Shown here: in pieces, positions 4,692-48,797 of the stretch
How positions within the stretch are numbered: the first letter of the stretch is position 1
Layout: each line of letters opens with the position of its first letter
Virus record (IMG/VR): IMGVR_UViG_3300041955_000531
DNA length: 64,000 nucleotides
From: a virus
Reading direction: 5' to 3' (one strand)
Program-made: the position numbers and the translations under genes
Notes under the pieces: model-generated
Told to the model about the DNA's origin: nothing
Databases searched by the model: none
What the model saw: the letters and a program-made list of their open reading frames with translations, nothing else

Positions 4692-4935
4692 GATTATCGT
4701 CCTCCTCGGGATCGATGATTATGGGGATGCGAACCCTAGTGAGATCGGTGTCTTCTGCGATGAAATCGCCCAGAGTCTTTCCACATATTACACACTTGTC
4801 GTTCACGTCCAGACCATTACGATGGTCGCCGTGAAACTCACATTCGTGTGCTTCGTGGACTACATTTTCAGAGTCCACAAATCCTTTGTTCTTACCCGTT
4901 TCGGGATTGATGATTTCCATCTCGTCGGCTGTCAT
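4672..4935 (-). CDS. hypothetical protein
   Basis: ORF track; GAGGT SD; CVIC motif. Confidence 0.65.
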   Translation of the reverse strand: MTADEMEIINPETGKNKGFVDSENVVHEAHECEFHGDHRNGLDVNDKCVICGKTLGDFIAEDTDLTRVRIPIIIDPEEDDNHEQQSK

Positions 4936-4958
4936 ATTCCACCTACCTCATTATACCA

Positions 4959-29297: not shown

Positions 29298-29805
29298 GGA
29301 ACTCTCTCCAGATGGGCTCAAACCATCTCATGAAAGGACTTACTTTATCAGCTGGAGGATTGGCTTCATTTCCTCCCTGATGATTCGTGTCCACGCCGGC
29401 AGCAGCAGTCTCCGGGACGTGTCGTCCAGCCCGTCCAATACTTTCTGGGCTGCCTTCTCCGCCAGCTGTTCCAGAAACTGCTCCTTCGATATCGCTTGTT
29501 CGGACATAAGACAGTGGATCCTCCGGTTGCATTTCAATCTGATTGTAGTGCTCATCATAAAAGTTGAGCACAAAATGTCCTTCATCCGCGCATACCTCTG
29601 CTGGATAAGGAGGGTCTCCAATGCCAGGATGATCAACAACCTCTGGATAAATAGCATACCAGCAAGGTCCTATGTCATCCAACCCATAGCTGAACCTCAA
29701 TAAGTGCTCAGCTATCTGGAGAGTGGAAGCAATATGGATGGTAGTACAATCCATCCAATGATTCCTCCACTCTCTATGTTCAACAATCCAAACGTAGTTA
29801 GACAT
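29290..29805 (-). CDS. hypothetical protein
   Basis: GAGGA SD before MSNYVW. Confidence 0.6.
   Translation of the reverse strand: MSNYVWIVEHREWRNHWMDCTTIHIASTLQIAEHLLRFSYGLDDIGPCWYAIYPEVVDHPGIGDPPYPAEVCADEGHFVLNFYDEHYNQIEMQPEDPLSYVRTSDIEGAVSGTAGGEGSPESIGRAGRHVPETAAAGVDTNHQGGNEANPPADKVSPFMRWFEPIWREFRG
29340..29507 (-). CDS. small helical protein nested in a different frame of the preceding ORF
   Basis: MSEQAISKEQFLEQLAEKAAQKVL... amphipathic, protein-like. Confidence 0.45.
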   Translation of the reverse strand: MSEQAISKEQFLEQLAEKAAQKVLDGLDDTSRRLLLPAWTRIIREEMKPILQLIK

Positions 29806-32800
29806 CTCTGTCCTCAATCATTTGAAACGTTTTCTCGTTTACGAAGATGCCTTTCTCTCCCTCTTCCTTAAGATAAGAGAGTAGCCCTTCGCGATCGCTA
29901 AGCACCCGGTCAACGAACCAACGCAAATCGACCTGGTGAGCGCGACGGTTAATGACCTTACGATCAAGTGCTTGTTCAGCAGCCGCCACTTTAGCATAAA
30001 AAGTGTTGTAGACATGTTCGTCAATGCTATTCTTAGCCATCAAGACGTACACATTACACGTACGGTTCTCTGAGGTAGGAGTGAATGCGCGAGACCATGC
30101 CTGTTGCTGTAGCCCCGGCTCCCACAAAAGATCGCAGCAAATGACCGTGTTCGCAGCCGAGAGATTGGTCCCTTCGCGGATCTGTCTTGTTCCAGCAATA
30201 AATATTTTCCTAGTAGGATCTTCAAGGAAAGCCTCGAAGTTTTCGTTTCTTTCATCATCATCCCATGTGCCGTCGAAGACGATCGGATTGTGCTCCGACA
30301 ACATCTTCGCCAGCGATTTTCTCATCTCTACGAAGTCCGTAAGAACGACCACCTTCTCGTTTGATGCCACCTTAGTAGCACAGATGTTCTGAATATCAGA
30401 CATCTTCCCGCCACCGAGTGGGCCATCGTAGATAGCAGGCTTACCGACCTTCTTAAGTTTGGCATTGAAGTACTCCGGACATGTGGCGCCGATGCGTAGA
30501 TACACCATCTGGCTAACCACCATGGCTTGGTTCAGCAAATGCCCTTGCTGCGCAACTTGAGCAGCGTACTGATTAAAGTTCGACTCAAAGTGGTTGATTG
30601 CTGCCACCATGAGCTGCGCTTGCTTTGGATCCATAGTCGATTCCACGCGATGAAACTCAACGTTCGGGTAGTATCGATTGGCCTTTGCGAGAGAGGCTTT
30701 AACGAGTTCATCTTCGTAGTTCCTTCGGACCATCTTTGAAGACATCAGCTCCCAGAAGGCAACTGGGTTCTTCAAATAAGGCAGCATCTTACGGCTGTCT
30801 TTTAGCCCGTGGCCTCGCTTGATGTTGATGTACTCACAGAAGCGATCGTAGAACTCTGTAGCTCCATCTTTCTGATGATACGGGAATGCCGCTGATCCTC
30901 CCTTAAACACCCAATGAAGCGGCCAAAACGCGTCCGCAGGAGTATTGGGCATAAGGGTCCCAGTAAGGCCCATGCGGCGCTTGGCCCGTATAGAACGGAT
31001 TGCTTTCCCCGTGTCAGAGTCCAATGATTTGATTGTATGTATCTCATCGATGATGGCTCCCGTGAAGTAGTCCTTGAGATGGACCTTCTTACTGCGGTCC
31101 GTCAGAATTCTTTGCTTGTAAGGCGCCGGGATCCAAACCGCGTCTGCTTGGTGGCATTCGTGGCAGTACCTGCCCTTAACGTTCTTGTCTTTGCAATCCT
31201 GATGGAACTTTAGGCCCCAGTCAATCCAACCGATGTAGCTATCCGGGAAGGTCACGGTCTCTTCAATGATCCCGTCAACCATCTTCCCTTCGTCGTTCTT
31301 GACCTTGCCTTTCTTCTGTACGACTTGGTCAACCTTGGCGCCAGTAAAGGACTTGATGTTCTGTACCTGGCCGCCGAGCTTTATCGGCTTAGCCCTCTTG
31401 ATCTTACGAGTCGTAGAGTCAATCGTATATCCCCACGCTGCGCCATTGATCGGGGCGCCCATGCGAGAAGTAAACTTTACCTTGCAATCGCACAGTTGGT
31501 TCCGGCAGATGTAACCACGCTCCTTAGTCCAGGAGATGGTCTTCTCCAACAGGAAACCTTCTGCGCTCTTGTTCTTCTTGACGTCCAAGCGCTCCAACGA
31601 TCGCTTACAGAAGGGACACTTGTGTTCGACAGTGATCTCCTTCCTATTCTCCGTGTATGTCCGATGCAGATAGCTTTGTCCCTTACGCCGGAAGACACGA
31701 TGAGGATCGAATGTCTTCTTCATCCAGCTGTAGGTCAGGAGGTAGAATGTTCCCGGCTTCTTAAGATCCTCCATGCTGTCAACCACGACATAGTTCTTAA
31801 GCCCAAGCCGCTCGAACTCCTTAACCGTGAATAGGCGTGCATTTCGTGGCGCAACAATAGCCACACGCTTACTGCCCCAAAACATGGCACAGACGATAGA
31901 CTCCGACGTCTTCCCCATGCGCATGAGCTTACCATTGAGGGTGCCACGCTTAAGAGCTTCCTGTACAGCATCGACTTTGACGTGGTCGTACAGCTCAAGA
32001 CCCATTGCATCCAGTCGCTTTTGGTACATAGCCAAGAGCTCGGGATACCTGACGGGTACACACTTAGAAGGTTCGTAGATGACTTTCTCTTCATAGTGAA
32101 AGTTGTTCTCCAGATCGCCGTTGAACACTGTCCATGGAAAGACTGTGTCATCTGCCATGATGATCTTGCAGCCGGGTGCAATAGCCACCTTGCTGATCTT
32201 CACCATGCCGTCTTGATGTTCCTTGGCGTCCTCGGCGTTTCCTCCGCCTTGTCCGCCGCGCGCTGTGTCAACCACCTGATACCGCTGGCCCTTGGTAAAG
32301 ATCCTTTGGTTATCAAAGTCAAAGTTCTTGGTACATTCAAGAATCATACCAGCCTCGACCTTCTCGAACAGCATCCGCTCATCCTTGAAGTCGGGCAGCA
32401 GGAAAGGAGTCAGCTCCTTAGCCAGGCGCTTCTCTTCTTTCTTGACCCAGTTACCCAATGATGGAGAGATTGTCACGCCCAGGTGATAGCGCGCGAGCAA
32501 TCTTACCATCGGATGTTCGTCCAGCTTCACGTTGACCAAGCTCCAGGCCCTGGTGGCCCGAGCAAAGTCCATGGGCTGAACATCCGGCAGCAACTGAATC
32601 TCTAGCTTCTCCCGAGTAGCCGTAAGAACCGGGTTAGCAAGCTGGGCGATTCGTTCTCTGATTTCGATAAGGGCAACTGCGGCATGGACATCGTTCGGTG
32701 TAATGACGATCTTACCGCCACCCTTGTGAAGAGTAACGGATGGAGTGTCAGATACTCCGAGGGGCAGAACTGCCTTATGAGCCTTCGCTTTCTTAACCAC

Positions 32801-32911
32801 CGGAGCGGGCGGAACATAAGGCTGTACGGGTGCGGACTGTTGATCATTCTGTTCCACTTCTACCTCATCGAGATCGAAATCAAGTGCATTTACGTACTCG
32901 ATTTTCTTCAT
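29798..32911 (-). CDS. SNF2-family helicase/translocase with large Cys-rich insertion
   Basis: MGKTS; IIDEIH; LTGTLMPN; EGTNLSAA; QAWSRA. Confidence 0.88.
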   Translation of the reverse strand: MKKIEYVNALDFDLDEVEVEQNDQQSAPVQPYVPPAPVVKKAKAHKAVLPLGVSDTPSVTLHKGGGKIVITPNDVHAAVALIEIRERIAQLANPVLTATREKLEIQLLPDVQPMDFARATRAWSLVNVKLDEHPMVRLLARYHLGVTISPSLGNWVKKEEKRLAKELTPFLLPDFKDERMLFEKVEAGMILECTKNFDFDNQRIFTKGQRYQVVDTARGGQGGGNAEDAKEHQDGMVKISKVAIAPGCKIIMADDTVFPWTVFNGDLENNFHYEEKVIYEPSKCVPVRYPELLAMYQKRLDAMGLELYDHVKVDAVQEALKRGTLNGKLMRMGKTSESIVCAMFWGSKRVAIVAPRNARLFTVKEFERLGLKNYVVVDSMEDLKKPGTFYLLTYSWMKKTFDPHRVFRRKGQSYLHRTYTENRKEITVEHKCPFCKRSLERLDVKKNKSAEGFLLEKTISWTKERGYICRNQLCDCKVKFTSRMGAPINGAAWGYTIDSTTRKIKRAKPIKLGGQVQNIKSFTGAKVDQVVQKKGKVKNDEGKMVDGIIEETVTFPDSYIGWIDWGLKFHQDCKDKNVKGRYCHECHQADAVWIPAPYKQRILTDRSKKVHLKDYFTGAIIDEIHTIKSLDSDTGKAIRSIRAKRRMGLTGTLMPNTPADAFWPLHWVFKGGSAAFPYHQKDGATEFYDRFCEYINIKRGHGLKDSRKMLPYLKNPVAFWELMSSKMVRRNYEDELVKASLAKANRYYPNVEFHRVESTMDPKQAQLMVAAINHFESNFNQYAAQVAQQGHLLNQAMVVSQMVYLRIGATCPEYFNAKLKKVGKPAIYDGPLGGGKMSDIQNICATKVASNEKVVVLTDFVEMRKSLAKMLSEHNPIVFDGTWDDDERNENFEAFLEDPTRKIFIAGTRQIREGTNLSAANTVICCDLLWEPGLQQQAWSRAFTPTSENRTCNVYVLMAKNSIDEHVYNTFYAKVAAAEQALDRKVINRRAHQVDLRWFVDRVLSDREGLLSYLKEEGEKGIFVNEKTFQMIEDRDV

Positions 32912-33093: not shown

Positions 33094-33779
33094 TCTAACT
33101 CCGTGAACAGGAAAGACTTGTACGTTCGCTTTCCGCGCGTAAGCATTTTGCCCACCACTTCCTTTTTAGGAGCTCGGCCGAAGAGATAGAGCTGCGCAAA
33201 CGCCTTGACGTCGTCCGGAGCAACAAGGAGTGGAATAGGACTGACCCGAGGGAAAACATGCTTACCCTTCCGCCGATTAAGCCGTTTCCATTCCTGTGCA
33301 CGGTATTTGTCCATATACGCAAGTACCTGTTTCTCATTGGCTTGTAAGATTGCTTCTCTCTTCGCCTTGATTTGATCCAAGAACTTCTTCATGGGCAATG
33401 CGTCAGGCAAGGCACATAGACTATAATGCGTGTCGAAGCAGCGCCATGAGACTTCCTTAGGTGATAGCGAGCGCGTAGTAGAGACGAGTTTACCATCCAC
33501 ACCCCGATACCGCTGGGTAGTACGCAGGTCGCCCCAAGTCCAGGAATCGTTCCCCCGGGCCCGGTACAAGTAATAGTAAGCTTCGAGGAACTTTTCGGGC
33601 GTAACCCCGTTGCGCCCCAGTCCAAAATATAAGTAGTCCCTGACGGACATCTTGATGATTCTGAGTGCGATAGTTTGTTCCACATTTAACTCTCCCTTGA
33701 ACAACGATGCCATGAAATCGTCGTCAAGATTGTTGAGGCTCTTCTGGCCCCCGAACGGGTTCTTGCTCATCCCGGGCAT
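33090..33779 (-). CDS. hypothetical protein
   Basis: GAGGAGG SD. Confidence 0.65.
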   Translation of the reverse strand: MPGMSKNPFGGQKSLNNLDDDFMASLFKGELNVEQTIALRIIKMSVRDYLYFGLGRNGVTPEKFLEAYYYLYRARGNDSWTWGDLRTTQRYRGVDGKLVSTTRSLSPKEVSWRCFDTHYSLCALPDALPMKKFLDQIKAKREAILQANEKQVLAYMDKYRAQEWKRLNRRKGKHVFPRVSPIPLLVAPDDVKAFAQLYLFGRAPKKEVVGKMLTRGKRTYKSFLFTELE

Positions 33780-34077
33780 TCTCAACCTCCTCAAACTTCA
33801 CATCGGTCTTCAGCCGGACTGTGTTAAACTTGTATGCTTCCACGATCGTCTTGGCAGGACCGGCCAGCCCATTGATAAAGCGATGGCCTTTCTTCCTCTT
33901 AACGATCGTCAAGGTACCCAGTCCTTCGACATCTACATCTCGGCCTTCCTTGATGGCCTTCTTCCATACCTCTACGACCTGATCGACCAGCTTGGCTGCC
34001 TTACGTTGTGAGTAGCCTAACTGATCGACCAGGCGTTGTGCGAGTAAAGCCTTACCAGCTCTCAGTTTGCCTGGCAT
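33724..34077 (-). CDS. HU/IHF-like DNA-binding protein
   Basis: AAKLVDQVVEV..AIKEG..V.VEGLGTLTIVKRK; TAATG coupling to the DYWKKG stop. Confidence 0.75.
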   Translation of the reverse strand: MPGKLRAGKALLAQRLVDQLGYSQRKAAKLVDQVVEVWKKAIKEGRDVDVEGLGTLTIVKRKKGHRFINGLAGPAKTIVEAYKFNTVRLKTDVKFEEVENARDEQEPVRGPEEPQQS

Positions 34078-34610
34078 TATCCCTTCTTCCAATAGTCGCT
34101 GATTCTAATAGCATGTTCAACGAACTCCTCGACAGACAAATCTCTCTTGGCATAGTTACACTGCTTGCAACAAGGCACGCAGTTGTCTGGCGTGTATCCA
34201 ATGCTGGAATCTTTCCTGTCAACTCCATTATGCTTATAGGAATCACTGGGTGTAGTCCAAACAAGAGCGGGTTCTGCGCCGCAGTAATAACAACGTTGAG
34301 AAGTTATCTCCTTAAACTGCTCATCAGAAAGTTCCCAAGTCTGCCCTCTTTTTCGGGCTGCTTGTCTGTAAGCATTCAGAAGTGCTCGGAAAGATGACCC
34401 TTCTTTCTTTCTCTTGTTACTGGAAACAGCCTTTCGTAAACAACCGCAACTGAATGTATTCTTACCCAAATGTGCCTGGGATACATTACAGAAACGCTTA
34501 CATGTACATTGACATCTCCATACAGCTCCGCCGAACCTATTGTTCTTCAAGCGACGGATGACCGTCAGATGCCCGATGACCTTGCCTTTCAAATCGATTA
34601 AGTTTGCCAT
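34077..34610 (-). CDS. HNH-type homing endonuclease ending in the original PolA C-terminus
   Basis: DLKGK..WRCQCTC..SCGC; CYYCG; NGVDRKDSSIGYTPDNCVPCCKQCNYAK; ends ISDYWKKG*. Confidence 0.88.
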   Translation of the reverse strand: MANLIDLKGKVIGHLTVIRRLKNNRFGGAVWRCQCTCKRFCNVSQAHLGKNTFSCGCLRKAVSSNKRKKEGSSFRALLNAYRQAARKRGQTWELSDEQFKEITSQRCYYCGAEPALVWTTPSDSYKHNGVDRKDSSIGYTPDNCVPCCKQCNYAKRDLSVEEFVEHAIRISDYWKKG

Positions 34611-34698
34611 AACTACCTCCAGTCCTGATTAGTATAGGCTTTACCTATCTTACAGTTCAGTTGAACTGGATGAATGGCTAACCTTTCTTCCAATAATC
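34098..34698 (-). mobile_element. intron-less HNH cassette inserted at the polA 3' end, carrying a recoded polA terminus
   Basis: GATTATTGGAAGAAAGGTTAG (34678-34698) versus GACTATTGGAAGAAGGGATAA (34077-34097): 4 differences, all synonymous. Confidence 0.75.
34625..34636 (-). promoter_or_regulatory. putative phage promoter motif TATACTAATCAG within an RBS-occluding hairpin
   Basis: identical to motif at 7630; TCCAGTT (34670-34664) can pair with GACTGGA overlapping the GGAGG SD. Confidence 0.6.
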
Positions 34699-35664
34699 CG
34701 CCACGGTCACGTCCGTCTTGTGAATGATATGATCATGATTCGTCTGTCCCTCAGACGGAATCAACTGATTGTATGCCCACTGCATCCCGTCCACCATGAT
34801 CTTGTTGACCGCATCGACTTCGCTGTCCGGACAAGTGAGGACAAGTTCGTCATGAACGAAAAGGAGGAAATGGGCCTCGTGGATGAGAGGGCCAGAGGAT
34901 TGACCCCCGCGGAGATCGAGATAGATCTTGCTGACAGCCATCTTAAGGGCGTCAGCACATGCCGCTTGAATGGGGTGGTTACCTGTGTATCTTTTGATCT
35001 GACTGATAATCTCATTGTAACGGTCCTTCTCTTCCTTGCCGCCGTCAGGATCTTTATATGGTATTTGGTAGAACCTGTAATGGCCGCCTAAAGACTTGGA
35101 CCAGCCATACTTAAGACCGTGCTTGCCTTGTTTGTCCAGCCAGATCTTCAGACCCTTCGCCTTCTTGAAGTAGTCGTCGATCAGCTTCTCGGCTTGCTCT
35201 TCGGTGTAGGGAGGTTCGTTCGACCCTGGTTTTCGGCCGCTATTAATCTGTTTAGCCACCTGACCTGGGCCTGCGCCATACGGCACACCGAATGTTGTGG
35301 TCTTAATCTCCGACCGCCAGCCATAATATTGATTGTATAGGGGATGGTCTTCATGTTTGTATGCATAAAAGAAGTCGTCGTACGGTATCCCATGGACGTC
35401 CGATGCCATATAACAATGAATGTCCTTGCCCGAGTTCAAAGCCTCCAACAGCCACTCATCTTGAGACTCCCAGGCCATGATACGGACTTCAATCTGACTG
35501 TAGTCCGCGCCTAGGATCTTCCAGCCCGGGCGGGCCCTGATACCCTCTCGGATATCAGGGACTCGCCAGGCTATCCATGGCTGTGGATGTTTCTTATCGG
35601 CCGGGCAGAGATAGTACTCCCTTCCGTTGCTGATACCTAACAGCTCTGGTTTTACGCCGGCCAT
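34678..35664 (-). CDS. polA: family-A DNA polymerase, C-terminal (palm/fingers) subunit
   Basis: motif A ADYSQIEVR; motif B RSEIKTTTFGVPYG; NHPIQ; motif C VHDELV; own AAGGAG SD. Confidence 0.92.
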   Translation of the reverse strand: MAGVKPELLGISNGREYYLCPADKKHPQPWIAWRVPDIREGIRARPGWKILGADYSQIEVRIMAWESQDEWLLEALNSGKDIHCYMASDVHGIPYDDFFYAYKHEDHPLYNQYYGWRSEIKTTTFGVPYGAGPGQVAKQINSGRKPGSNEPPYTEEQAEKLIDDYFKKAKGLKIWLDKQGKHGLKYGWSKSLGGHYRFYQIPYKDPDGGKEEKDRYNEIISQIKRYTGNHPIQAACADALKMAVSKIYLDLRGGQSSGPLIHEAHFLLFVHDELVLTCPDSEVDAVNKIMVDGMQWAYNQLIPSEGQTNHDHIIHKTDVTVADYWKKG

Positions 35665-35673
35665 GTTGTCTCC

Positions 35674-36129
35674 TTACGGGGCGGAGAAGCCTATACTTTC
35701 GTCTTCGTGCTTCCCTTCCTCTTCATCTTGTTCGAAGAGCTCGGCGCCATCTTCTGAGGCAACCTCGCGACTTAAACCAGCCTTCTGCGCGCGCGTAGCA
35801 TTCCGGTAGTCACGTTCAGTGAACGCCGACTCGAGAATGATATTGCCTTCCTTATCTCGATAGGCCCACCATTGTGGTTCCACCTTCACCAAGCCGATGG
35901 CCTCACCAACCTTACGGTAGAAGCGGCCGACTGACTTTGTAGTCATGGCTCTGGAGATATCAAAATCTGCCACAGCCTCCTGAAGCTTGCGATACTCTTC
36001 CACGAGCGTAGTCTTATAGCGCTCATACTCGACGAAGAGTTCTGTTGCTTCCTGGAAGATCTCAGGATGTGACTCCTTGATCTCTGACAGCTTGTATTTC
36101 GTTGTACGGATGATCCTATTTCTTGCCAC
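35674..36129 (-). CDS. hypothetical protein with acidic tail, lying between the two polA halves
   Basis: GGAGG SD plus GTG at 36129; track ORF 35674..36216. Confidence 0.7.
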   Translation of the reverse strand: MARNRIIRTTKYKLSEIKESHPEIFQEATELFVEYERYKTTLVEEYRKLQEAVADFDISRAMTTKSVGRFYRKVGEAIGLVKVEPQWWAYRDKEGNIILESAFTERDYRNATRAQKAGLSREVASEDGAELFEQDEEEGKHEDESIGFSAP

Positions 36130-37501
36130 TGGCAACCTCCGGTTGATTGAACTTCTCCACAGCTTTATTGTACTGCTCTGAGAACAAAATCTTGATATGT
36201 TCTGCCGCGTCTCCAACGACAGGATCTAAGATATGATCAGGTCTCGGGAACTGCTGTGCATCCGACGACCACCGCCCTGTAGCAATAGTAGTCGCCTTGT
36301 CCCCGCCTTTTCTCTTTTCCAGATCGCCGGACCCCAGTTGATTAAACTCAGGGTGCAGACGACCATCAGTAGTAGACCTACGAGCAAGCATCCTTTCGCC
36401 ATAAGTTGAAATGATCTTGGTACACTCAGTGTACTCTCCTAAGAGATCAGCGAACTCCGTCTCTAAGGCAAGAAGTGTCTCCCTCTTAGTATCCTTTACT
36501 TCAAAGCCCATCTTGTGAAGAGCTCCCAACTTCTTGGTAGCTGAGTTGATATCAAACTCTTCCATTGTATCAGGCAGGAGGAAGTTACGCTTCTTTCCTG
36601 CCTTGTCGAGGGCATCATCATAAATCTGCATGGCTTTATCCCTGATGCTCTTCGCCTTGGCGCGCCAGTAATCTAGCGTGGACTCAATGCGCTGATCATC
36701 AAGATCAAAGCCCGTCAGCTCTGCGTCGGCCGTGCCAGCCATAGCACAGAACTCTATTTGAATCCTTTCCCACATCCCAGGATGCTTCTTGATTTCCTTC
36801 AGCTGCTCTTGCTTGATTGGAAATAGGAGGAAGACGTCACGGGCGGCGTAGTAAAGGTGTCGGTATTGTAATACGCCAGACATGTTAATAAACTCGCGAC
36901 GGACAGCTTTGGAGATGAGATAGTGTGGAGGGTATTTCTCCGATAGTTCTTCAAGACCGACCTGAACTCCATATAAACCCGCCGTGAGTATTTGCTCTGC
37001 CAGCATCGTATCGTACAAGCTGGGGATGTATACCTTGGTTTTATCATCGTAGTGATAGTTGATGAAGTGGACTCCATACTTAGCCAGGCAGAACTTGAAG
37101 TCGTACACTCCGTTCTGGGTTAAGAAGAGCCTGTCTTCATCCTCCAGGATTCCCTTAAACTCCGGTACCAGCTTTGGTTCAATAAGGTAAACCATCTTAG
37201 GAGTACCCAGCTGGAATAGAAGCATGCGGGACGATGGCGAAAGCGGGTCCAGTCCATCGCGTTTATTATCGCCCCCAGTTTCAGAGTCGATACCAAGTTC
37301 TTGTTGTTTGGTAAGCCACGTAAGCGGTGCAGATAGGTCATTCTTAGAATGTACCTTGGTGATGTCCGAATCCGGAACCGCTCCTTCTCCAATGGATCCA
37401 TTTATCCACTCCGGTGTGCCAATAACATGGAAGGGAACATCAATGTGCTCCTCAAGTTGCTTGGACGTTATCGTCTGGAACGCTGGCTTCTTGCTTGCCA
37501 C
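36116..37501 (-). CDS. polA: family-A DNA polymerase, N-terminal subunit (3'-5' exonuclease plus thumb)
   Basis: ExoI IDSET; ExoII QNGVYD; YDTMLAE; ExoIII YAARDV; GRLHPEFNQ; ATGRWSS..QQFPR; likely GTG start at 37501. Confidence 0.9.
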   Translation of the reverse strand: MASKKPAFQTITSKQLEEHIDVPFHVIGTPEWINGSIGEGAVPDSDITKVHSKNDLSAPLTWLTKQQELGIDSETGGDNKRDGLDPLSPSSRMLLFQLGTPKMVYLIEPKLVPEFKGILEDEDRLFLTQNGVYDFKFCLAKYGVHFINYHYDDKTKVYIPSLYDTMLAEQILTAGLYGVQVGLEELSEKYPPHYLISKAVRREFINMSGVLQYRHLYYAARDVFLLFPIKQEQLKEIKKHPGMWERIQIEFCAMAGTADAELTGFDLDDQRIESTLDYWRAKAKSIRDKAMQIYDDALDKAGKKRNFLLPDTMEEFDINSATKKLGALHKMGFEVKDTKRETLLALETEFADLLGEYTECTKIISTYGERMLARRSTTDGRLHPEFNQLGSGDLEKRKGGDKATTIATGRWSSDAQQFPRPDHILDPVVGDAAEHIKILFSEQYNKAVEKFNQPEVASGKK

Positions 37502-38006
37502 AGATCGCCTCGTGTGCTGCTGTGATTTCGGGCAACTTGTTGCCCAAGAAACTGAAGAGCTCACCCAACTGAGGACCGACAGTCCACGTCTGATAGAGCG
37601 GATGCTCATAGATATCCAAGGATGAAGACAGACTGAATGATGGCACGATCAGGAAGCCCAAGAGCTGACCACGAGTAATCAAACGGGTACAGCACTCATA
37701 GACTTCGAAGTTCAAATGGAAACGCCAGTTAAACTTCTCTCCAATCTTGATGCCGATCAGATAGACAGTATGTAGTGGAACATGTGGCGCCACTCCGAAA
37801 GGGAGTATCTGTTTGTAGCCACCGCCCCACATAGTAACCTGCTTCTTACTCTCTATCTGCTTCAGAAGTACACTACCGTACCCGCTATTGCTAGTAATGT
37901 TGATATTCAGAATAGTGCAGGCTCTCCATGCATCCTTGGACCAGGAGGCATGTTGCCAAACAGCCTGTCCGATGTGATACCCTGCGAATGGTTCTTTATC
38001 TGGCAT
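37452..38006 (-). CDS. hypothetical protein
   Basis: GAGGAG SD. Confidence 0.6.
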   Translation of the reverse strand: MPDKEPFAGYHIGQAVWQHASWSKDAWRACTILNINITSNSGYGSVLLKQIESKKQVTMWGGGYKQILPFGVAPHVPLHTVYLIGIKIGEKFNWRFHLNFEVYECCTRLITRGQLLGFLIVPSFSLSSSLDIYEHPLYQTWTVGPQLGELFSFLGNKLPEITAAHEAICGKQEASVPDDNVQAT

Positions 38007-38680
38007 TGCTCCTCATAATAAGGACAGACAGCCCTGAATCCCTGTTGAGTATATTCGTCCACCTTCTTTACGATGTCGTCGAATGAATCTTCATCCCATG
38101 ATCCTATCACAGGATAGACTCCATCGCAAGACTGATAAATGATTGTTCCGTCCGGCTGGACGGCAATCCGAGTGGGAGCTATATACCGTGGTCTCATGCA
38201 CTTAACAGTGCACTTCACTTGTTCTCCAGCAAGTCTTCCCATAGGGAGGATTTGGGTGTCTGGGGTTTTAAGCCGCACCATGGTAGGATAAGTGTTCGAT
38301 AGATATTCAAGCATTGCAGGATCTTGAAAGGCGCGATGCTGATCAGTACCAGAGACGAACACCTGGACCTTGTACTTAAAGGCCCAGAGCATGAACGCCG
38401 TAGTAGCGACAAGGTCTTTGCTCCACGTTCCATTGGTAATGCAGAACCTGGGGACTCGAGTATTGGTACGCTCAAGGATAATAGAGTTCTCTTTCAGAAA
38501 CAGAGATGGCTCTCCTCCATAGATTCCAATGCCATTGATCATGTGCCAACGGACAGTCTTCATCCAACTGTGATGCTTATCCAAGTCCATCCGATCGTAG
38601 ATCTGAGGACCTGAAGAGTACATACAAAAGGAGCACGACAAGTCGCACTGCTTACTGTACATGAAGCTCAGGTCAAACAT
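37907..38680 (-). CDS. radical SAM protein with Twitch/SPASM-like C-terminus
   Basis: CDLSCSFC; GGEP; TNG; IAVQPDG.IYQSC. Confidence 0.85.
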   Translation of the reverse strand: MFDLSFMYSKQCDLSCSFCMYSSGPQIYDRMDLDKHHSWMKTVRWHMINGIGIYGGEPSLFLKENSIILERTNTRVPRFCITNGTWSKDLVATTAFMLWAFKYKVQVFVSGTDQHRAFQDPAMLEYLSNTYPTMVRLKTPDTQILPMGRLAGEQVKCTVKCMRPRYIAPTRIAVQPDGTIIYQSCDGVYPVIGSWDEDSFDDIVKKVDEYTQQGFRAVCPYYEEQCQIKNHSQGITSDRLFGNMPPGPRMHGEPALF

Positions 38681-38696
38681 CTGACCTTCTTGGTAC

Positions 38697-39518
38697 TCAG
38701 GAGGCCTGTCCTGCCTCAGGATCTTCACCATTGTCGTCCCTCTTATACTGGCGATTGTAAACCTTAAGGCCAAGGTAAGTCAGGATTTCACTTGGCGCCG
38801 AGGCGATGGGAATAAGGCGAAGCATTTGATGGGCAGAAGTATGGACTTGAAGTGTGGCAGTACGATCTTCCATACTACCATAATAGTCCTTGGCCTGCCA
38901 TTTGGTTTCCTTCCAGACCTTTTCAGGATCCGGAATGACATAATAGCACCAAGGTCTCTTCTGACCCTTGTGGTACACAGCAAAGATCTTAGCCTTGCCA
39001 TCAAACTGTTCGTTCAAGACGCCAGTCATGATAGGTTCTTTCATCTTGACAGCATCATTCGCAATCAAAGTAAAGACTTGGGCAGGTATCATGTCGCATT
39101 CATTGGCGACCATGGTCGACTCTGTGTCGCTCTTAAGGGTGTAAGTCCAGTCTTTGCAACCCTTTTCAGGCTTGCGGCAGCCAGCAACAGTATACTTACG
39201 CCAGTCACGAGCGCCACTCTCTGCCCAAACGACGTCGTTAAGCTTGAAAGGACTTAGCCGTTCTGGCTCTTCCTTAGGCTTCTCTTTCTTTTTCTTGGTC
39301 ACCTTCTTCTTTTTCTTGATGACCTTGATTGGAACAGGCTTAGGCTTGATCTCGTCTTCGAACTTCTTAGGAGGTGGCGTAGACACAGTCACTTTCTTGG
39401 CGCCCACCTCATTGACGAAGTCCTTCATCTGCCCAATCATTATCAGAGGAAGAGAATATCCTCCAGAAGGTACTGGCGGCCCAGGAATAACAGTTGGGTC
39501 TTGCTTCTTCTTAGGCAT
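38697..39518 (-). CDS. hypothetical Lys-rich protein
   Basis: ORF track; TAATG coupling. Confidence 0.65.
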   Translation of the reverse strand: MPKKKQDPTVIPGPPVPSGGYSLPLIMIGQMKDFVNEVGAKKVTVSTPPPKKFEDEIKPKPVPIKVIKKKKKVTKKKKEKPKEEPERLSPFKLNDVVWAESGARDWRKYTVAGCRKPEKGCKDWTYTLKSDTESTMVANECDMIPAQVFTLIANDAVKMKEPIMTGVLNEQFDGKAKIFAVYHKGQKRPWCYYVIPDPEKVWKETKWQAKDYYGSMEDRTATLQVHTSAHQMLRLIPIASAPSEILTYLGLKVYNRQYKRDDNGEDPEAGQAS

Positions 39519-40369
39519 TAGTCCAATGGCGTCAACTCTGACGTCTTATAGGATCTTGTGTGAGACAAATGCCAGTGGTCATCACTGTAACCATGCCACT
39601 GGCCCACTCTGAAGTGACCTGTCACTTCTTTCTTGGGCTTGAACCCATACCTGTAATAGAACTGTGCGATCGGCATCTCCACACGATGTGGGACGTTGTC
39701 CTCGTAGCCTCCATAATAATAGGAAGGCTTCTTGTACAAGTTCGCCGTCTCAAGCAAGTCCATCAACGTCTTGTTGTACATCAATGGGAACTCAAACCAT
39801 ACTTCTTCCACAGCCACCTGTTTGCCAGACGGAGTCCGGCACATAACGAAGTTGCGAGGGAGAGGAGGCTTACTATTTACCGAGAGAGGCGCCGGCTTTG
39901 CACCAAACAAGAACCTGGACGTGAAAGCATCCAGATTGTCTGGCATGTGTCCATCCTTGATCATCTGCGCGCGATGGCGCCGCTCAACTTCAATCAGACC
40001 ATGCTCCCTAACTGCTTGAAACTTCATCAGTTGTATGTAGGTATCACGGATCTGAGTACACACTGTATCGCGTGTCTGTTCTAGGAGCAGCATACCCTTA
40101 CGGGTTCGAAGCTCCTTGTCTGTCATACCTTGAACCTCTAGTAGATCCTCTTCGTCCGCCTTCAAGACGACGTCCGTTACAACAGTGTGAGAATCCTTGC
40201 TCAACTGACTCCACTTCTCATGAATAGAGTTCTCGCCCAACGGCTCCTGCAAATGAGAGAGCTCCCAAGCCTTCTCATTCAATAGGTGCAGTGTAGGATA
40301 AGTATCCTGCTGCACCTCCTCTATTGGCTTCATAGCTGCAAGCCAGTTATTGATCCGCTCGTTCTTCAT
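39518..40369 (-). CDS. hypothetical protein
   Basis: ORF track; ATGA coupling. Confidence 0.65.
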   Translation of the reverse strand: MKNERINNWLAAMKPIEEVQQDTYPTLHLLNEKAWELSHLQEPLGENSIHEKWSQLSKDSHTVVTDVVLKADEEDLLEVQGMTDKELRTRKGMLLLEQTRDTVCTQIRDTYIQLMKFQAVREHGLIEVERRHRAQMIKDGHMPDNLDAFTSRFLFGAKPAPLSVNSKPPLPRNFVMCRTPSGKQVAVEEVWFEFPLMYNKTLMDLLETANLYKKPSYYYGGYEDNVPHRVEMPIAQFYYRYGFKPKKEVTGHFRVGQWHGYSDDHWHLSHTRSYKTSELTPLD

Positions 40370-41439
40370 CTGCGGTCTCCAAAGAATAGATACTCAGATG
40401 TCATGTCGACAATCGTTTTCGATATCGTCTCGAGGTCAGGCGTAGCTGGTACCTTAAACTGTTCAGGTGGAATACCATCGATCTTTGCCACCATTTCATC
40501 GGCGTAGCCTACCACCTGCTCATAAGTCCAAGTACCAGCCCGTATAGAAAGGAGGTCCTGTGCGTCGGGACGGCGAACCATAAGATCGCCTGTGGTAAGT
40601 ATCTCATAACCACAACGAAGCAGGCGGACCAAATGCATAGCATGCTTAGTGTCATACCCAAACCGTATTTCCGTATCATGCCGGTCAGGGTTTCTTTCAG
40701 CCATCCAAGTGACATATTGATCCCTCTTCTTCTTGGCTTCATCGTACAAATGCTTCTGGAACTCCCACGTCTGGTCAATGTTGCCATTGAACATACGAGG
40801 TTGACCAAGCTTAAAGAACTTTTGATCGTTCCTATCTGGGCAAATGATATTGGATGTCTTGAAGATCTCGAGTGCTTCGGCCTCGGGCATCAAAGGAGGA
40901 TCCGGTAACCCAGACCACATCTCCTTCACACGTTCCAACATGTTGTCGCCAAAGCGCCAAGCAACCCACTGTTCCGTAACCTTCCCTTGACGTACCAGAG
41001 GCTCCAACTTAGCCATGTCATCCATCTCTTGCTGTAACCACTTGGTATGCGTACGGATCCGATGGAGCTGAGCCTTGGCATACCCAACGAACGTCTTCTG
41101 GCACCGCTGACTCAAGAACCGATGACGTATCTCCCTGAGCGCCGTTGCTTCAGGTAAGCATAAGAGAACATCTCGCGGATCGACGAAGAGCAACTCGAGC
41201 ACGTTCGGGTTATTAGCAACTGCCAGCGTTGCATACTTCCTAAGCGAGTAATAACTGAGGTCGTCTTCTGCTTGCTCCGACAACAGGTCGAAGGCTTGCA
41301 ACCCAAAGTAGTATTCAATGGGGGGAATGAAAATACCAGCAAAGTCTTCATCAGACGTAGGGAGATTAGTCCCGTAGGCATGGCTTCCACACCTCACTTT
41401 GTAGATCAGGTTCTGATCTGCTATTTCTCTTGCGTTCAT
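40366..41439 (-). CDS. Pol-beta superfamily nucleotidyltransferase (RlaP/YcgL-like)
   Basis: GSHAYGTNLPTSDED; NNPNVLELLF; GYAKAQ; YDTKHAMHLVRLL. Confidence 0.85.
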   Translation of the reverse strand: MNAREIADQNLIYKVRCGSHAYGTNLPTSDEDFAGIFIPPIEYYFGLQAFDLLSEQAEDDLSYYSLRKYATLAVANNPNVLELLFVDPRDVLLCLPEATALREIRHRFLSQRCQKTFVGYAKAQLHRIRTHTKWLQQEMDDMAKLEPLVRQGKVTEQWVAWRFGDNMLERVKEMWSGLPDPPLMPEAEALEIFKTSNIICPDRNDQKFFKLGQPRMFNGNIDQTWEFQKHLYDEAKKKRDQYVTWMAERNPDRHDTEIRFGYDTKHAMHLVRLLRCGYEILTTGDLMVRRPDAQDLLSIRAGTWTYEQVVGYADEMVAKIDGIPPEQFKVPATPDLETISKTIVDMTSEYLFFGDRR

Positions 41440-45022: not shown

Positions 45023-45165
45023 TTCTTCTCCTTCAGCTCAATCAAGGTATGAAGAATAGCAAGGAGGATCTTGCATGTGAGCAGGCTGGCCAGGAAACTT
45101 GGCCCTCCTTCTACATACCCCCAGTACTCCTTCTTCAGTTCTGAGTACTCTAATAGGTTACTCAT
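45019..45165 (-). CDS. 48-aa hypothetical protein (MSNLLEYSELKKEYW...)
   Basis: translated by hand; ATGA overlaps at both ends. Confidence 0.5.
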   Translation of the reverse strand: MSNLLEYSELKKEYWGYVEGGPSFLASLLTCKILLAILHTLIELKEKK

Positions 45166-46346
45166 TTCTTCTTGTTGCCCCACTCGATCTCAGCGGGTGA
45201 GAGCACGTACTTGAAGTTCGATTCTCCTTCCTGTACGTGGATATGATCCGAGTCCGATCCATAGCGGAAGACAACGTCTTCGCTCTTCATAACAGAGAGG
45301 ACATTGGATATGTCCGATAGCCCGAGACCCACTGTGACTGGTCCTTCGGACTTTTCGGTCTTGGCCACGCTCTCTTGGAATGCGCTACCATACCCCCGGG
45401 TAGCAAGGACCACTGTCGATCCGTTGAACGTGAGAGAAAGTGTCCCCTTCTCTGCGTAGGCCGAGAGTCGAGCCAGCACGTTGATGAGCTGGGCTCTATT
45501 GATGGTGGCTGTTCGATGTTCACCAGGCACGGTGAAAATCTTCGCCACCGCCTTTGGGTAGGGTTTCGCGAGCTGCCGAATACCCAGGATAGCATCCGAA
45601 AAGCGAAAAAGGATCTCGTTCGTTGCACCGGTGTTAGAGGTAGCATTGGTTACGGTCACCTCTTCTTCTTTCTTTCGGGAGAGAATGGCCTTGAGGGCCA
45701 CAAGAGCATCCCTGTGTATGCCCCCGCTGAAGACCCCTGTAACCAACGGATCATGTACTTCACACTGGCCGGCAATGATTCGATTGGTAGCCGTTCCCAC
45801 GAGAGCGCCGTTGCTAGCCTCCAACAATACCGACGAAAGCCATGGTCCCTCCGTGATCGCATTCGACCCCGAGGCAGTACAAAAGGCTGTTCGATTGATG
45901 AGGTCAACCAACGTTGCCGCGGATACAGTAAAACAAGGCTTGGCATTGAATGGAATAGACGAAAGTACTTCGCTTGCCTTTTGACCATCCGCATGAACTG
46001 CGATTTCACTTTTGAGTGTGCCATACTTCACCTGTAGCTTGGCGCCGGAGGCACTCAAGCCTATCTCGATCTCCTCTTCGGCAGGTAGGTTACCGATCGT
46101 CTGGCCGAGCAGCCGAGGAACAATCAAAGCATATCCGCTCTTGATTACATCAGCAGGTATCTTCAATAGCGTACGTGCCATACCAAGATTGCTGGTATAG
46201 ACATACATCCTGGACTCGTCCTTCTCTGTTGCCGCCATGGCAATCAGATACATCCATGATCCCACGCTAGATGCTTTGGAATCAAGGGTATAAGAGGCTT
46301 GGCTAATAGCTTCGCGCAGCTCTTTGATCTTGACCTTGAGTTGCAT
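45162..46346 (-). CDS. dnaN: DNA sliding clamp (Pol III beta-like)
   Basis: 394 aa; LINRTAFCTA..LSSVLLE..TATNR; RQLAKPYP; VLSP terminus follow the beta-clamp pattern. Confidence 0.8.
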   Translation of the reverse strand: MQLKVKIKELREAISQASYTLDSKASSVGSWMYLIAMAATEKDESRMYVYTSNLGMARTLLKIPADVIKSGYALIVPRLLGQTIGNLPAEEEIEIGLSASGAKLQVKYGTLKSEIAVHADGQKASEVLSSIPFNAKPCFTVSAATLVDLINRTAFCTASGSNAITEGPWLSSVLLEASNGALVGTATNRIIAGQCEVHDPLVTGVFSGGIHRDALVALKAILSRKKEEEVTVTNATSNTGATNEILFRFSDAILGIRQLAKPYPKAVAKIFTVPGEHRTATINRAQLINVLARLSAYAEKGTLSLTFNGSTVVLATRGYGSAFQESVAKTEKSEGPVTVGLGLSDISNVLSVMKSEDVVFRYGSDSDHIHVQEGESNFKYVLSPAEIEWGNKKK

Positions 46347-46915: not shown

Positions 46916-47638
46916 TCAGGCACTCATTGCTTCTTTGGCGCCTGGCTTATCAACGACAGGCTTTACCCGTGCCTTCTGGCAGGCAACGCACAACTGCTTC
47001 TTGTACTTGCGCTGTCCATTGGCAATAAGTTCACTGATGCTGATCACACGATCACCATGCTGATAGGGTTCTATCTTAGCGTGGCAGTCTTCACATTCTT
47101 TCTTTGGAATAGCCCAATCAGGGAGTTCCGGAGGGTCGGTGATCCTGCGAGAGGTATCGTCGTATGGAACCCATTGATTCTTTGGTAGATCATAAAGGTA
47201 TCTTCCCAGGCCAAAGCGAGTTGCAGCTCGCTTGAAAGCTTGGGCTTCGGCGGAAGTGATAGCATTTTCATCCAGCGCGTCGGACTCACCAGTCCCCGAG
47301 TTCTGGCCGATACCTTCAATGGTAATGGTAGCCACAACCAGGACCTTGCCCTTATAAGGGAACTGCTTCCACTTCTCAGTTTGTTTTTCGTCGAAGATTG
47401 GGTCAATCGTCGTGACCTCATAGTGGCAGCTCCATCCTGCTGGTGTCAACACTTCATTGAATCGATCTGAGTATGCGCGCGGGTCGGCATAAGCAGCAGC
47501 GATTGCCTTGTCCTTGCTCTTGCTGATCGCCTGGGGCTTCCAGTAGATCAGATCGGGATCGAATGGTTCCTCTAACTTCTCGAGGATAGCCTTGACCCTA
47601 AGTTCAGCAAACTTCTCTTTCACTAAATCAAACTCCAT
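46916..47638 (-). CDS. Rad52/22-family single-strand annealing protein with C-terminal Zn ribbon
   Basis: AYADPR..DRFNEVL; AEAQAFKRAATRFGLGRYLY; CEDC..CVAC. Confidence 0.88.
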   Translation of the reverse strand: MEFDLVKEKFAELRVKAILEKLEEPFDPDLIYWKPQAISKSKDKAIAAAYADPRAYSDRFNEVLTPAGWSCHYEVTTIDPIFDEKQTEKWKQFPYKGKVLVVATITIEGIGQNSGTGESDALDENAITSAEAQAFKRAATRFGLGRYLYDLPKNQWVPYDDTSRRITDPPELPDWAIPKKECEDCHAKIEPYQHGDRVISISELIANGQRKYKKQLCVACQKARVKPVVDKPGAKEAMSA

Positions 47639-47664: not shown

Positions 47665-48609
47665 TTATTTAGTTCTCTCGCAGACATTATATAGTCTAGC
47701 ACAAAGTTCGGCTAAGCCAAAGGCTTCTATGGCTGGAATGTGCGCCGTAAGTTCAATGATTGCCTCACTTACACGCACTGGTCTCTCCGGCTCGCGCAGC
47801 AACATAGACTTCAAGTAGTTGACTACTACCAGCCGAATAACCGTTGCCTCTTCGTTCGTGGCTTGTGAAAGAGCTGTTCGAACGGTGTTCCAGTCTCTTT
47901 TGGCAACAGCTTTAGCAATCTCAAAAGCCTGCGGTGCATCTTGCGTTCCGAAGATAGCTCCAAGGGGATCCATTCCCCCTGCGAAACGTTCAGTCGCCAT
48001 AAGTATGGCCCGCGGGGCTGTAACATTCTCTCTAAATAAGCTTTGAACAAACTCTTCAGTCTTTGCATCTTTCTTTCCTAGGTGAGTTAACGCCCGCTGA
48101 ACGAGGGTCCTTGTACCATCGAGCGTGAGGCCTGCGAGTGCGAACGATACACATCGGCCGCGGAGTGTCGGTATAATCTTAGAAGGTTCGGTTGTGGAAA
48201 AGATCCATACAGTACTCGGCGGAGCATCCTCCACGTGTTTAAGGAGAGCATTTTGTGCCTGCTTTGTTAGTTGATGCGCTTCATCATAAACAATGACCTT
48301 AAAGTCACCCATAAGTGGTCGGTGGGCAGCTTCTTCTCCAGCTGCTCTTGCAGCATCCACCCCCGTGTCGTCTGCGGCATTCTTCTCGACAAGCTCTCCA
48401 TTAAGCTCGGCGTTAATGCACCGTGCCAACGTAGTCTTGCCACACCCTGTGGGTCCCGATAAGAGTATTGCAGTCGGCACACGGCCTGAGCGTAGCTGGG
48501 TCCTAATCTGGTTGACAATCGAGGGACTCCCAATGAACTCATCAAAGGTGCTGGGCCGTAAGTCCACGGCAAGATTACGGGTGGTGGTCCCAATCTGATC
48601 GGCATTCAT
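47665..48609 (-). CDS. dnaX: clamp loader, Pol III gamma/tau-like
   Basis: RPSTFDEFIG; GPTGCGKTT; DEAHQLT; AQNALLK; STTEPSKIIPTLRGRC. Confidence 0.88.
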   Translation of the reverse strand: MNADQIGTTTRNLAVDLRPSTFDEFIGSPSIVNQIRTQLRSGRVPTAILLSGPTGCGKTTLARCINAELNGELVEKNAADDTGVDAARAAGEEAAHRPLMGDFKVIVYDEAHQLTKQAQNALLKHVEDAPPSTVWIFSTTEPSKIIPTLRGRCVSFALAGLTLDGTRTLVQRALTHLGKKDAKTEEFVQSLFRENVTAPRAILMATERFAGGMDPLGAIFGTQDAPQAFEIAKAVAKRDWNTVRTALSQATNEEATVIRLVVVNYLKSMLLREPERPVRVSEAIIELTAHIPAIEAFGLAELCARLYNVCERTK

Positions 48610-48617
48610 GTTTTCTC

Positions 48618-48797
48618 CTAAAACCACCAAGTAACTACTGCTGTGATAGCTGCGGCGAGTATGAAATAAGCAGCGTGCCGCCAATCCTTAACGAAACAAT
48701 AACCTATACCAGCGCCGAAGCAAAGAACTATCTGGGCTAAGCCCAGGATAAGACCCCAGTTCCACTGCATCATTGTCCCAAGGATCTTAAGAGGCAT
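48618..48797 (-). CDS. small membrane protein
   Basis: two hydrophobic segments. Confidence 0.55.
   Translation of the reverse strand: MPLKILGTMMQWNWGLILGLAQIVLCFGAGIGYCFVKDWRHAAYFILAAAITAVVTWWF

Follow-up and report, generated by a model that had tools for sequence, protein, structure and literature searches.

We analysed a 64,000-nucleotide (nt) stretch of viral DNA (IMG/VR virus record IMGVR_UViG_3300041955_000531; hereafter the window), in which the gene for a family A DNA polymerase (PolA) lies in two pieces with a small third gene between them. Nearly all plausible genes of the window are on the minus strand, as are these three cistrons. The first, polA-N (36116..37501, 461 amino acids, aa), starts with GTG after a GAGG and would encode the N-terminal polymerase subunit; its start was fixed by alignment to the related loci L001, L004, L007 and L008. 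The second, which we call M (35674..36129, 151 aa), starts with a GTG at 36129 behind a GGAGG, and this start overlaps the end of polA-N by 14 nt. The third, polA-C (34678..35664, 328 aa), starts with ATG behind an AAGGAG site at 35675-35670 and would encode the C-terminal subunit. Each of the three therefore has its own ribosome-binding site. An earlier note on this DNA, made from the sequence alone, had described a polymerase split into two open reading frames (ORFs), and the three minus-strand cistrons bear out that description.

The two polymerase pieces divide the enzyme inside its polymerase domain. polA-N holds the 3'-5' exonuclease, the thumb and the TGR / QQFPRP segment; residues 89-272 match PF01612 (Pfam; 34.3 bits against a cut-off of 23.6, E 2.6e-8), and the protein matches positions 656-990 of phrog_17. 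The exonuclease motifs Exo I-III are present in its translation as DSETGG, NGVYDF and YYAARD, and the TGR motif is intact. Taken alone, its match to the polymerase profile PF00476 (profile positions 8-123, 24.1 bits) lies under the cut-off. polA-C matches the later part of the same profile (positions 140-364, 134.6 bits, E 5.7e-39) and has intact motifs A (DYSQIEVR), B (RSEIK..FGVPYG) and C (VHDE). The family A polymerase domain is thus not on a single polypeptide, but on two cistrons, in the window as in about 18 related lineages.

At the break, polA-N ends in a 40-aa tail that follows QQFPRP (36119..36238), and polA-C begins with a 35-aa leader (35560..35664) that carries the pattern LG..GxEYYL ... 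WRVP. The earlier note had taken these residues for new, non-polymerase additions. They are not new, because both align to one contiguous segment of unsplit homologues: the three that we found, P0038 (762 aa), P0039 (780 aa) and the partial P0157, have, with QQIPRP before it and RVP..REAFRA after it, an uninterrupted insertion of about 70 aa. The tail aligns to residues 416-451 of P0038 and the leader to residues 452-483. By homology, tail and leader make up the first and second halves of this insertion, which is specific to the clade, lies between the QxxPRP segment and motif A, and is altogether missing from other PolA lineages. Both halves are well conserved. Tails of 28-53 aa with one shared pattern were found in all 11 N-halves examined, and the ratio of nonsynonymous to synonymous substitution rates (dN/dS) of the tail is 0.096. 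Among 38 diverse C-halves the signature LG..GxEYYL...WRVP of the leader is nearly invariant, with G10, E16, R34 and P36 invariant or nearly so.

The unsplit P0038 offers a view of what this insertion may look like when it is contiguous. Its AlphaFold2 model (mean predicted local distance difference test, pLDDT, 85) is Klenow-like and matches a Klenow/BF-like enzyme with a Foldseek E value of 2.6e-27. The insertion (residues 416-483) is modelled, with moderate confidence only (pLDDT 62-82), as a strand (419-421), two helices (425-434 and 436-446), a loop (447-453), a hairpin (454-467) and a further strand (477-481); the alignment used for the fold had the N tails misplaced and was shallow over the tail half of the insert, with three sequences only. 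The natural chain break corresponds to the loop at 447-453, and in the model such a position fits a module able to re-form from two chains.

The order polA-N, M, polA-C recurs far beyond the window. When the six-frame ORFs of all fetched loci were searched with profiles, it was found in about 18 distinct lineages, which come from independent samples and reach down to 35% identity in polA-C (the window, L001-L004, L006-L012, L015-L019, L098-L101, L103 and L104). Every locus that has a leader-bearing C piece is split in this order, with no exception wherever the contig permits the check, and the other PolA families in the fetched set are single ORFs that have neither the insertion nor M. In the protein database, stand-alone polA-C homologues form at least 133 clusters (36-93% identity) as against three unsplit forms. 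A search of the region at DNA level against 50,697 phage records gave no match, protein-level matches among the same records all stayed below about 30% identity, and a first metagenome scan with P0038 as query gave no match either. As judged from these comparisons, the arrangement is old and common to many related phages, and not a recent repeat-flanked insert.

What lies between the halves differs from lineage to lineage. The distance ranges from about 0.5 kb (L010, L103) to 2.1 kb in L008, where a 204-aa ORF and an HNH endonuclease gene (phrog_3322) stand between M and polA-C (4877-6163). The gap of L007 holds a 58-aa ORF, that of L009 has a 114-aa ORF between polA-N and M, and L016 has about 0.8 kb on either side of M; in L102 and L106 a cytosine-methyltransferase-like gene (motif I FCGAGG) directly follows the N piece. 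The HNH gene in L008 indicates that endonucleases visit the split site. The view that the DNA between the halves is one 682-bp unit does not survive this comparison, and the variable content makes any mechanism of precise gap removal implausible.

One such mechanism was suggested by two copies of the hexamer CCTGAT, each encoding Pro-Asp, which lie 682 bp apart in polA-N (36236..36241) and polA-C (35554..35559), exactly as the earlier note had reported. Either a ribosome that hops between the matched codons or excision of the DNA between the repeats would then produce a one-piece enzyme, and the join would indeed read QQFPRPDIREGIRA, with near canonical spacing. The hexamer itself is common: the window contains 53 copies against 42 +/- 6 expected, and these include one more on the same strand inside polA-N (36569-36574). 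Nor are the codons conserved. L004, with 73% identity in polA-C, has CCAGAT and CCCGAC at the two sites; the N-side Pro-Asp is missing in L009, L011 and L015, distant relatives having for example PRKK (as in L009), PRPE or PKPK instead, and the unsplit P0038 has RPE and RVPT at the two sites. We therefore regard the two copies as a chance repeat, and not as the borders of a 682-bp insert.

Removal of the intervening DNA would moreover not restore the canonical sequence, as the earlier note had supposed, nor the ancestral protein, but would strip the protein of the conserved module of about 70 aa that the unsplit relatives retain. The known bypass in T4 gene 60 spans 50 nt. Here the take-off and landing codons are not conserved, and the gap of 0.5-2.1 kb includes a conserved translated gene. 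The earlier note had already ranked hopping and excision low, and we uphold that ranking; both appear to us extremely improbable. The same note had reasoned that contiguous homologues with a long insertion at this position would reduce the breaks to simple frameshifts. The unsplit relatives come close to the first half of that description, but simple frameshifts do not account for the conserved gene between the halves.

The reading frames around the M stop codon deserve a separate remark. M and polA-C of the window share a frame, with one TAA and three codons between them (35662-35676, minus strand). Read-through from M into polA-C was considered and rejected: in L004 the two frames differ, and the shared frame in the window looks coincidental. 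In the comparison with L001, the first 37 codons of polA-C (35554-35664, minus strand) show a synonymous rate (dS) of only 0.043, as against 0.46 for the remainder of polA-C and 0.77 for M. Recent recombination in this patch could account for the low value, as could an additional constraint on the RNA near the start of polA-C.

Group I introns are frequent in phage polymerase genes, and a group I or group II intron between the halves, with M as the intron ORF, would allow splicing to restore a single messenger RNA. Introns do occur in this very gene. In two relatives, a group I intron (RF00028) of full model length interrupts motif B (FGVPYG) of polA-C (L098:3250-4008, 48.8 bits, E 6e-10; L019:6332-6988, 29.9 bits), and the polymerases of L098 and L019 thus consist of three coding pieces plus M. 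An Rfam scan of positions 34000-38000 of the window at E <= 10 found no intron, although the same approach detected the ORF-sized introns (650-760 nt) of the relatives. The tail and leader are translated, conserved and present in the unsplit proteins; polA-C has its own AAGGAG and ATG; the genes and lengths of the gap vary by lineage; and, on inspection, the Pro-Asp codons fit no U/omega-G splice-site geometry. Splicing is therefore very improbable as the means by which the two halves are joined.

The same polymerase gene also attracts inteins, which raises the question of whether tail and leader could be the halves of a split intein that ligates the two proteins in trans. LAGLIDADG inteins are frequent in polA-C of the relatives, at an NHPIQ/C site in P0036, P0037 and P0040-P0044 and inside motif A (DY/C...HN/SQIE) in P0223; with group I introns in addition, polA-C is a favoured site for mobile elements of several kinds. 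Pfam found no intein domain in polA-N or polA-C of the window, and together with the Rfam result this agrees with the earlier note, which had seen neither intein termini nor group I features at the junction. Tail and leader amount to only about 75 aa in total. The leader has no terminal His-Asn and no Cys, Ser or Thr at the +1 position, but ends in WRVPD followed by IREG, and in the unsplit proteins the residues of tail and leader are permanently present. We consider protein trans-splicing to have next to no chance of being correct.

It might also be asked whether the broken gene is a decaying pseudogene or an artefact of assembly, in a phage that replicates with another polymerase. Beyond the break itself we found nothing that would favour this. 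The arrangement recurs in independent assemblies from many samples, and all catalytic motifs are intact. Comparison with the 95%-identical L001 gives dN/dS values of 0.095 for polA-N, 0.085 for M and 0.079 for polA-C, that is, purifying selection of about 0.08-0.10 on all three. The contigs of close relatives reach about 215 kb. In three genomes of relatives that are 99-100% complete (215, 214 and 205 kb) we found no PolB and no Pol III alpha, and the only DNA polymerase matches were the PolA pieces. Decay or misassembly is thus a most unlikely explanation, and the split PolA apparently is the sole replicase of a widespread uncultured phage clade with genomes of up to about 215 kb.

These results point to a heteromeric polymerase, and we think it very probable that the separate polypeptides assemble non-covalently. 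The earlier note had favoured two separately translated, assembling pieces, and this fits the retention of both the split and its start signals in about 18 lineages, the variable gaps, the purifying selection and the lack of another polymerase in the complete relatives. We propose that polA-N would supply the proofreading exonuclease, the thumb and the TGR/QQFPRP primer-contact segment, and polA-C the catalytic motifs A, B and C. The chain break would fall in a loop mid-way through the clade-specific insertion of about 70 aa, and the tail (a strand and two helices) and the leader (a hairpin and a strand) would most likely re-form that insertion and hold the active site together.

The gene between the halves belongs to what is, by all sequence searches that we made, a previously undescribed protein family. 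We found 35 close homologues of M, and 63 representative clusters (at 50% identity) among 1.84 billion representative proteins; the proteins of these clusters are 61-171 aa long and stand alone, and in none of the 63 clusters is M fused to another protein. M matched nothing in Pfam or PHROG and bears no endonuclease signature, and in the ESM Atlas it matched only unnamed viral clusters. A tblastn search against phages returned one match, inside a terminase gene, which we rejected as spurious. In the AlphaFold2 model (pLDDT 79), M has one long helix (about 56 residues), a hairpin, a second and short helix, and an acidic tail that is disordered. A Foldseek search of the PDB with this model gave no match, and VIA-align returned generic coiled coils only (Z about 5). 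A motif in the tail, D-[LM]-[FY]-E, was found in 50 of the 52 representatives, to which the close subgroup that includes M of the window adds a terminal [IL]GF.

M is tightly packed between the polymerase genes and would be co-transcribed with them, and its likeliest role is that of a third subunit. We give such a polymerase-associated accessory role about an even chance. The folded part of M would then bind the polymerase, while its flexible acidic D-[LM]-[FY]-E tail would dock another replisome protein. Acidic aromatic C-terminal tails are known to dock replisome partners, as in the clamp-binding motif QL[SD]LF, the C-terminus of SSB, and the tails of T7 gp2.5 and gp4 on the family A polymerase of T7. 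The end of M resembles these in being a disordered acidic run with D-[LM]-[FY]-E, a match at the level of a short linear motif only. Unlike the clamp motif, the M tails have no conserved glutamine, and binding to a clamp is a candidate function only.

The leading candidate for a partner is nevertheless a phage clamp, since the window encodes both a clamp and a clamp loader. A beta-clamp-like processivity factor of 394 aa (phrog_947) lies at 45162-46346, an Erf-like annealing protein at 46916-47638 and a clamp-loader AAA+ protein at 47665-48684, all on the minus strand. Clamp-like factor, Erf-like protein and clamp loader are unusual company for a family A replicase. That M is a clamp tether is a tentative suggestion, which we ourselves regard as doubtful. 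Similarly speculative, and on balance unlikely, is the full picture in which polA-N, M and polA-C form a three-subunit, clamp-dependent family A replicase, with M clasping the re-formed tail-leader module by its helix and hairpin domain and its acidic D-[LM]-[FY]-E tail tethering the enzyme to the beta-type clamp of the phage.

It is possible, too, that the halves assemble and M is a mere passenger, either a remnant of the element that split the gene or an unrelated replication or regulatory protein held in place by the operon structure. M shows no detectable similarity to polymerase accessory factors, other genes can intervene between M and either half, and an independently split polymerase, that of phage MEP401 (see below), also has an unrelated small helical ORF, so that such ORFs may be incidental. 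Against this, M still stands between the halves in lineages in which its identity has fallen to 22-36%, wherever the contig allows it to be seen, and selection on M is as strong as on the polymerase. Furthermore, M was not found beside the unsplit relatives, neither within 4.8 kb downstream in L097 nor on the P0039 contig; L097 has a different gene context and the P0039 contig carries an integrase. We therefore hold the passenger explanation to be rather unlikely, while preferring an accessory subunit as the account of M.

Several observations weigh against the interpretation of a split polymerase assembled with M and a clamp. The module on which assembly would depend is modelled with the moderate confidence noted above. 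A tree of the polA-C region nests the unsplit forms among the split ones, though weakly (Shimodaira-Hasegawa-like approximate likelihood ratio test 87-90), and an approximately unbiased test does not reject monophyly of the split forms (p = 0.33). If the nesting is real, the unsplit forms would have arisen by secondary re-fusion with loss of M. The fold of M is unrecognisable beyond its long helix, which leaves its function a matter of conjecture. Of the bacterial clamp-binding consensus QL[SD]LF, D-[LM]-[FY] matches no more than the final three positions, and the M tail is equally like the acidic aromatic tails of SSB and T7 gp2.5. Finally, one argument in favour of the clamp is that it was found in five of five genomes with the N-M-C order and in none of five large phages with the nearest unsplit PolA, but here phylogeny is a confounder, as one clade is set against others, and the queries differed (the clamp protein of the window for the former, the phrog_947 profile for the latter).

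Other genes around the locus are as follows, all on the minus strand. Directly after polA-C lies an HNH endonuclease gene (phrog_1035, phrog_374; 34077-34610), which is missing from that place in L001; polA-C and this adjoining ORF both terminate in DYWKKG. Beyond it are genes for an HU-like DNA-binding protein (33724-34092) and a 1037-aa SNF2-type helicase (29798-32911), which hold their position after polA-C in relatives. On the other side of polA-N are a radical SAM protein (37907-38773) and an RlaP-family nucleotidyltransferase (40366-41439).

Split replicases have been described in other phages. In Aeromonas phages 25 and 44RR a family B polymerase is split into gp43A and gp43B (Petrov et al. 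2006, reviewed in PMC2988022); the two products co-purify and are active, and the gap holds a seg endonuclease gene or an untranslated spacer, depending on the phage (PMC2988022). As there, the split studied here runs through the polymerase domain and leaves two cistrons, and the gap contents vary. Those phages, in contrast, have a family B enzyme, lack a conserved third gene and are few, whereas here a family A enzyme is concerned and at least 133 protein clusters are involved.

Closer in polymerase family are the OM43 phages MEP401 and MEP402, in which polA is split with a small ORF of unknown function; the mechanism was left open and an intron suggested as a possibility (Yang et al. 2023, PMC10580990). 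The division is similar, with an N piece of exonuclease and early polymerase domain, a C piece of the remainder and a small helical ORF between. The break in MEP401, however, falls directly before motif A, after ...LFLSRYGE, unlike that in the window; MEP401 and MEP402 have no 70-aa insertion, and their genomes are of 43 kb and podovirus type, as against about 215 kb here. The 77-aa gp14 of MEP401 was tried as a relative of M and rejected, as it scored 3 bits against the M profile.

T7-like cyanophages of the S-SBP1 type have a PolA split between its exonuclease and polymerase domains, reported as the first such case in PolAs (Czernecki et al. 2023, PMC10201439); the prediction there is that the two parts come together again and leave the new termini facing the solvent (PMC10201439). 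There, too, a family A polymerase comes from two genes, but the split is at the exonuclease/polymerase boundary, whereas here it lies inside the polymerase domain, so that the active site would be made from two chains. No conserved intervening gene comparable to M was reported for the S-SBP1-like case.

The earlier note had itself drawn a comparison with nrdA of phage Aeh1, a gene for an essential enzyme, which is split by the homing endonuclease gene mobE and whose two polypeptides reassemble into active enzyme (PMC2988022). The fit is loose. Both are enzyme genes in two parts with a gene between them, and the parts of the present polymerase would likewise assemble. MobE, however, is a recognisable HNH endonuclease and M is not; the HNH genes near this locus are the one in the gap of L008 and the one downstream of polA-C in the window.

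Family A enzymes are the textbook single-chain polymerases. To our knowledge, the published splits in this family are either at the exonuclease/polymerase boundary, as in T7-like cyanophages, or unexplained single cases, as in MEP401. In the phages studied here the catalytic domain itself is divided, one chain having the TGR primer-contact segment and the other motifs A-C. From the sequence comparisons this is a distinct internal split, far more widespread than the earlier cases and accompanied by a conserved partner gene. It also calls for a correction of annotation, since gene callers mark only the C piece as a DNA polymerase and M as hypothetical.

The split polymerase provides a natural system for studying how a divided active site is assembled, and its natural break point may serve the engineering of split PolA enzymes. 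M adds a new family of small proteins (63 clusters) with a testable role in the replisome. The phages of this clade also encode their own clamp and clamp loader. If M does link the polymerase to that clamp, a PolA would have gained the solution to processivity that is normal for Pol III and PolB replicases, and this would explain why M has been retained between the two halves across a large clade of phages.

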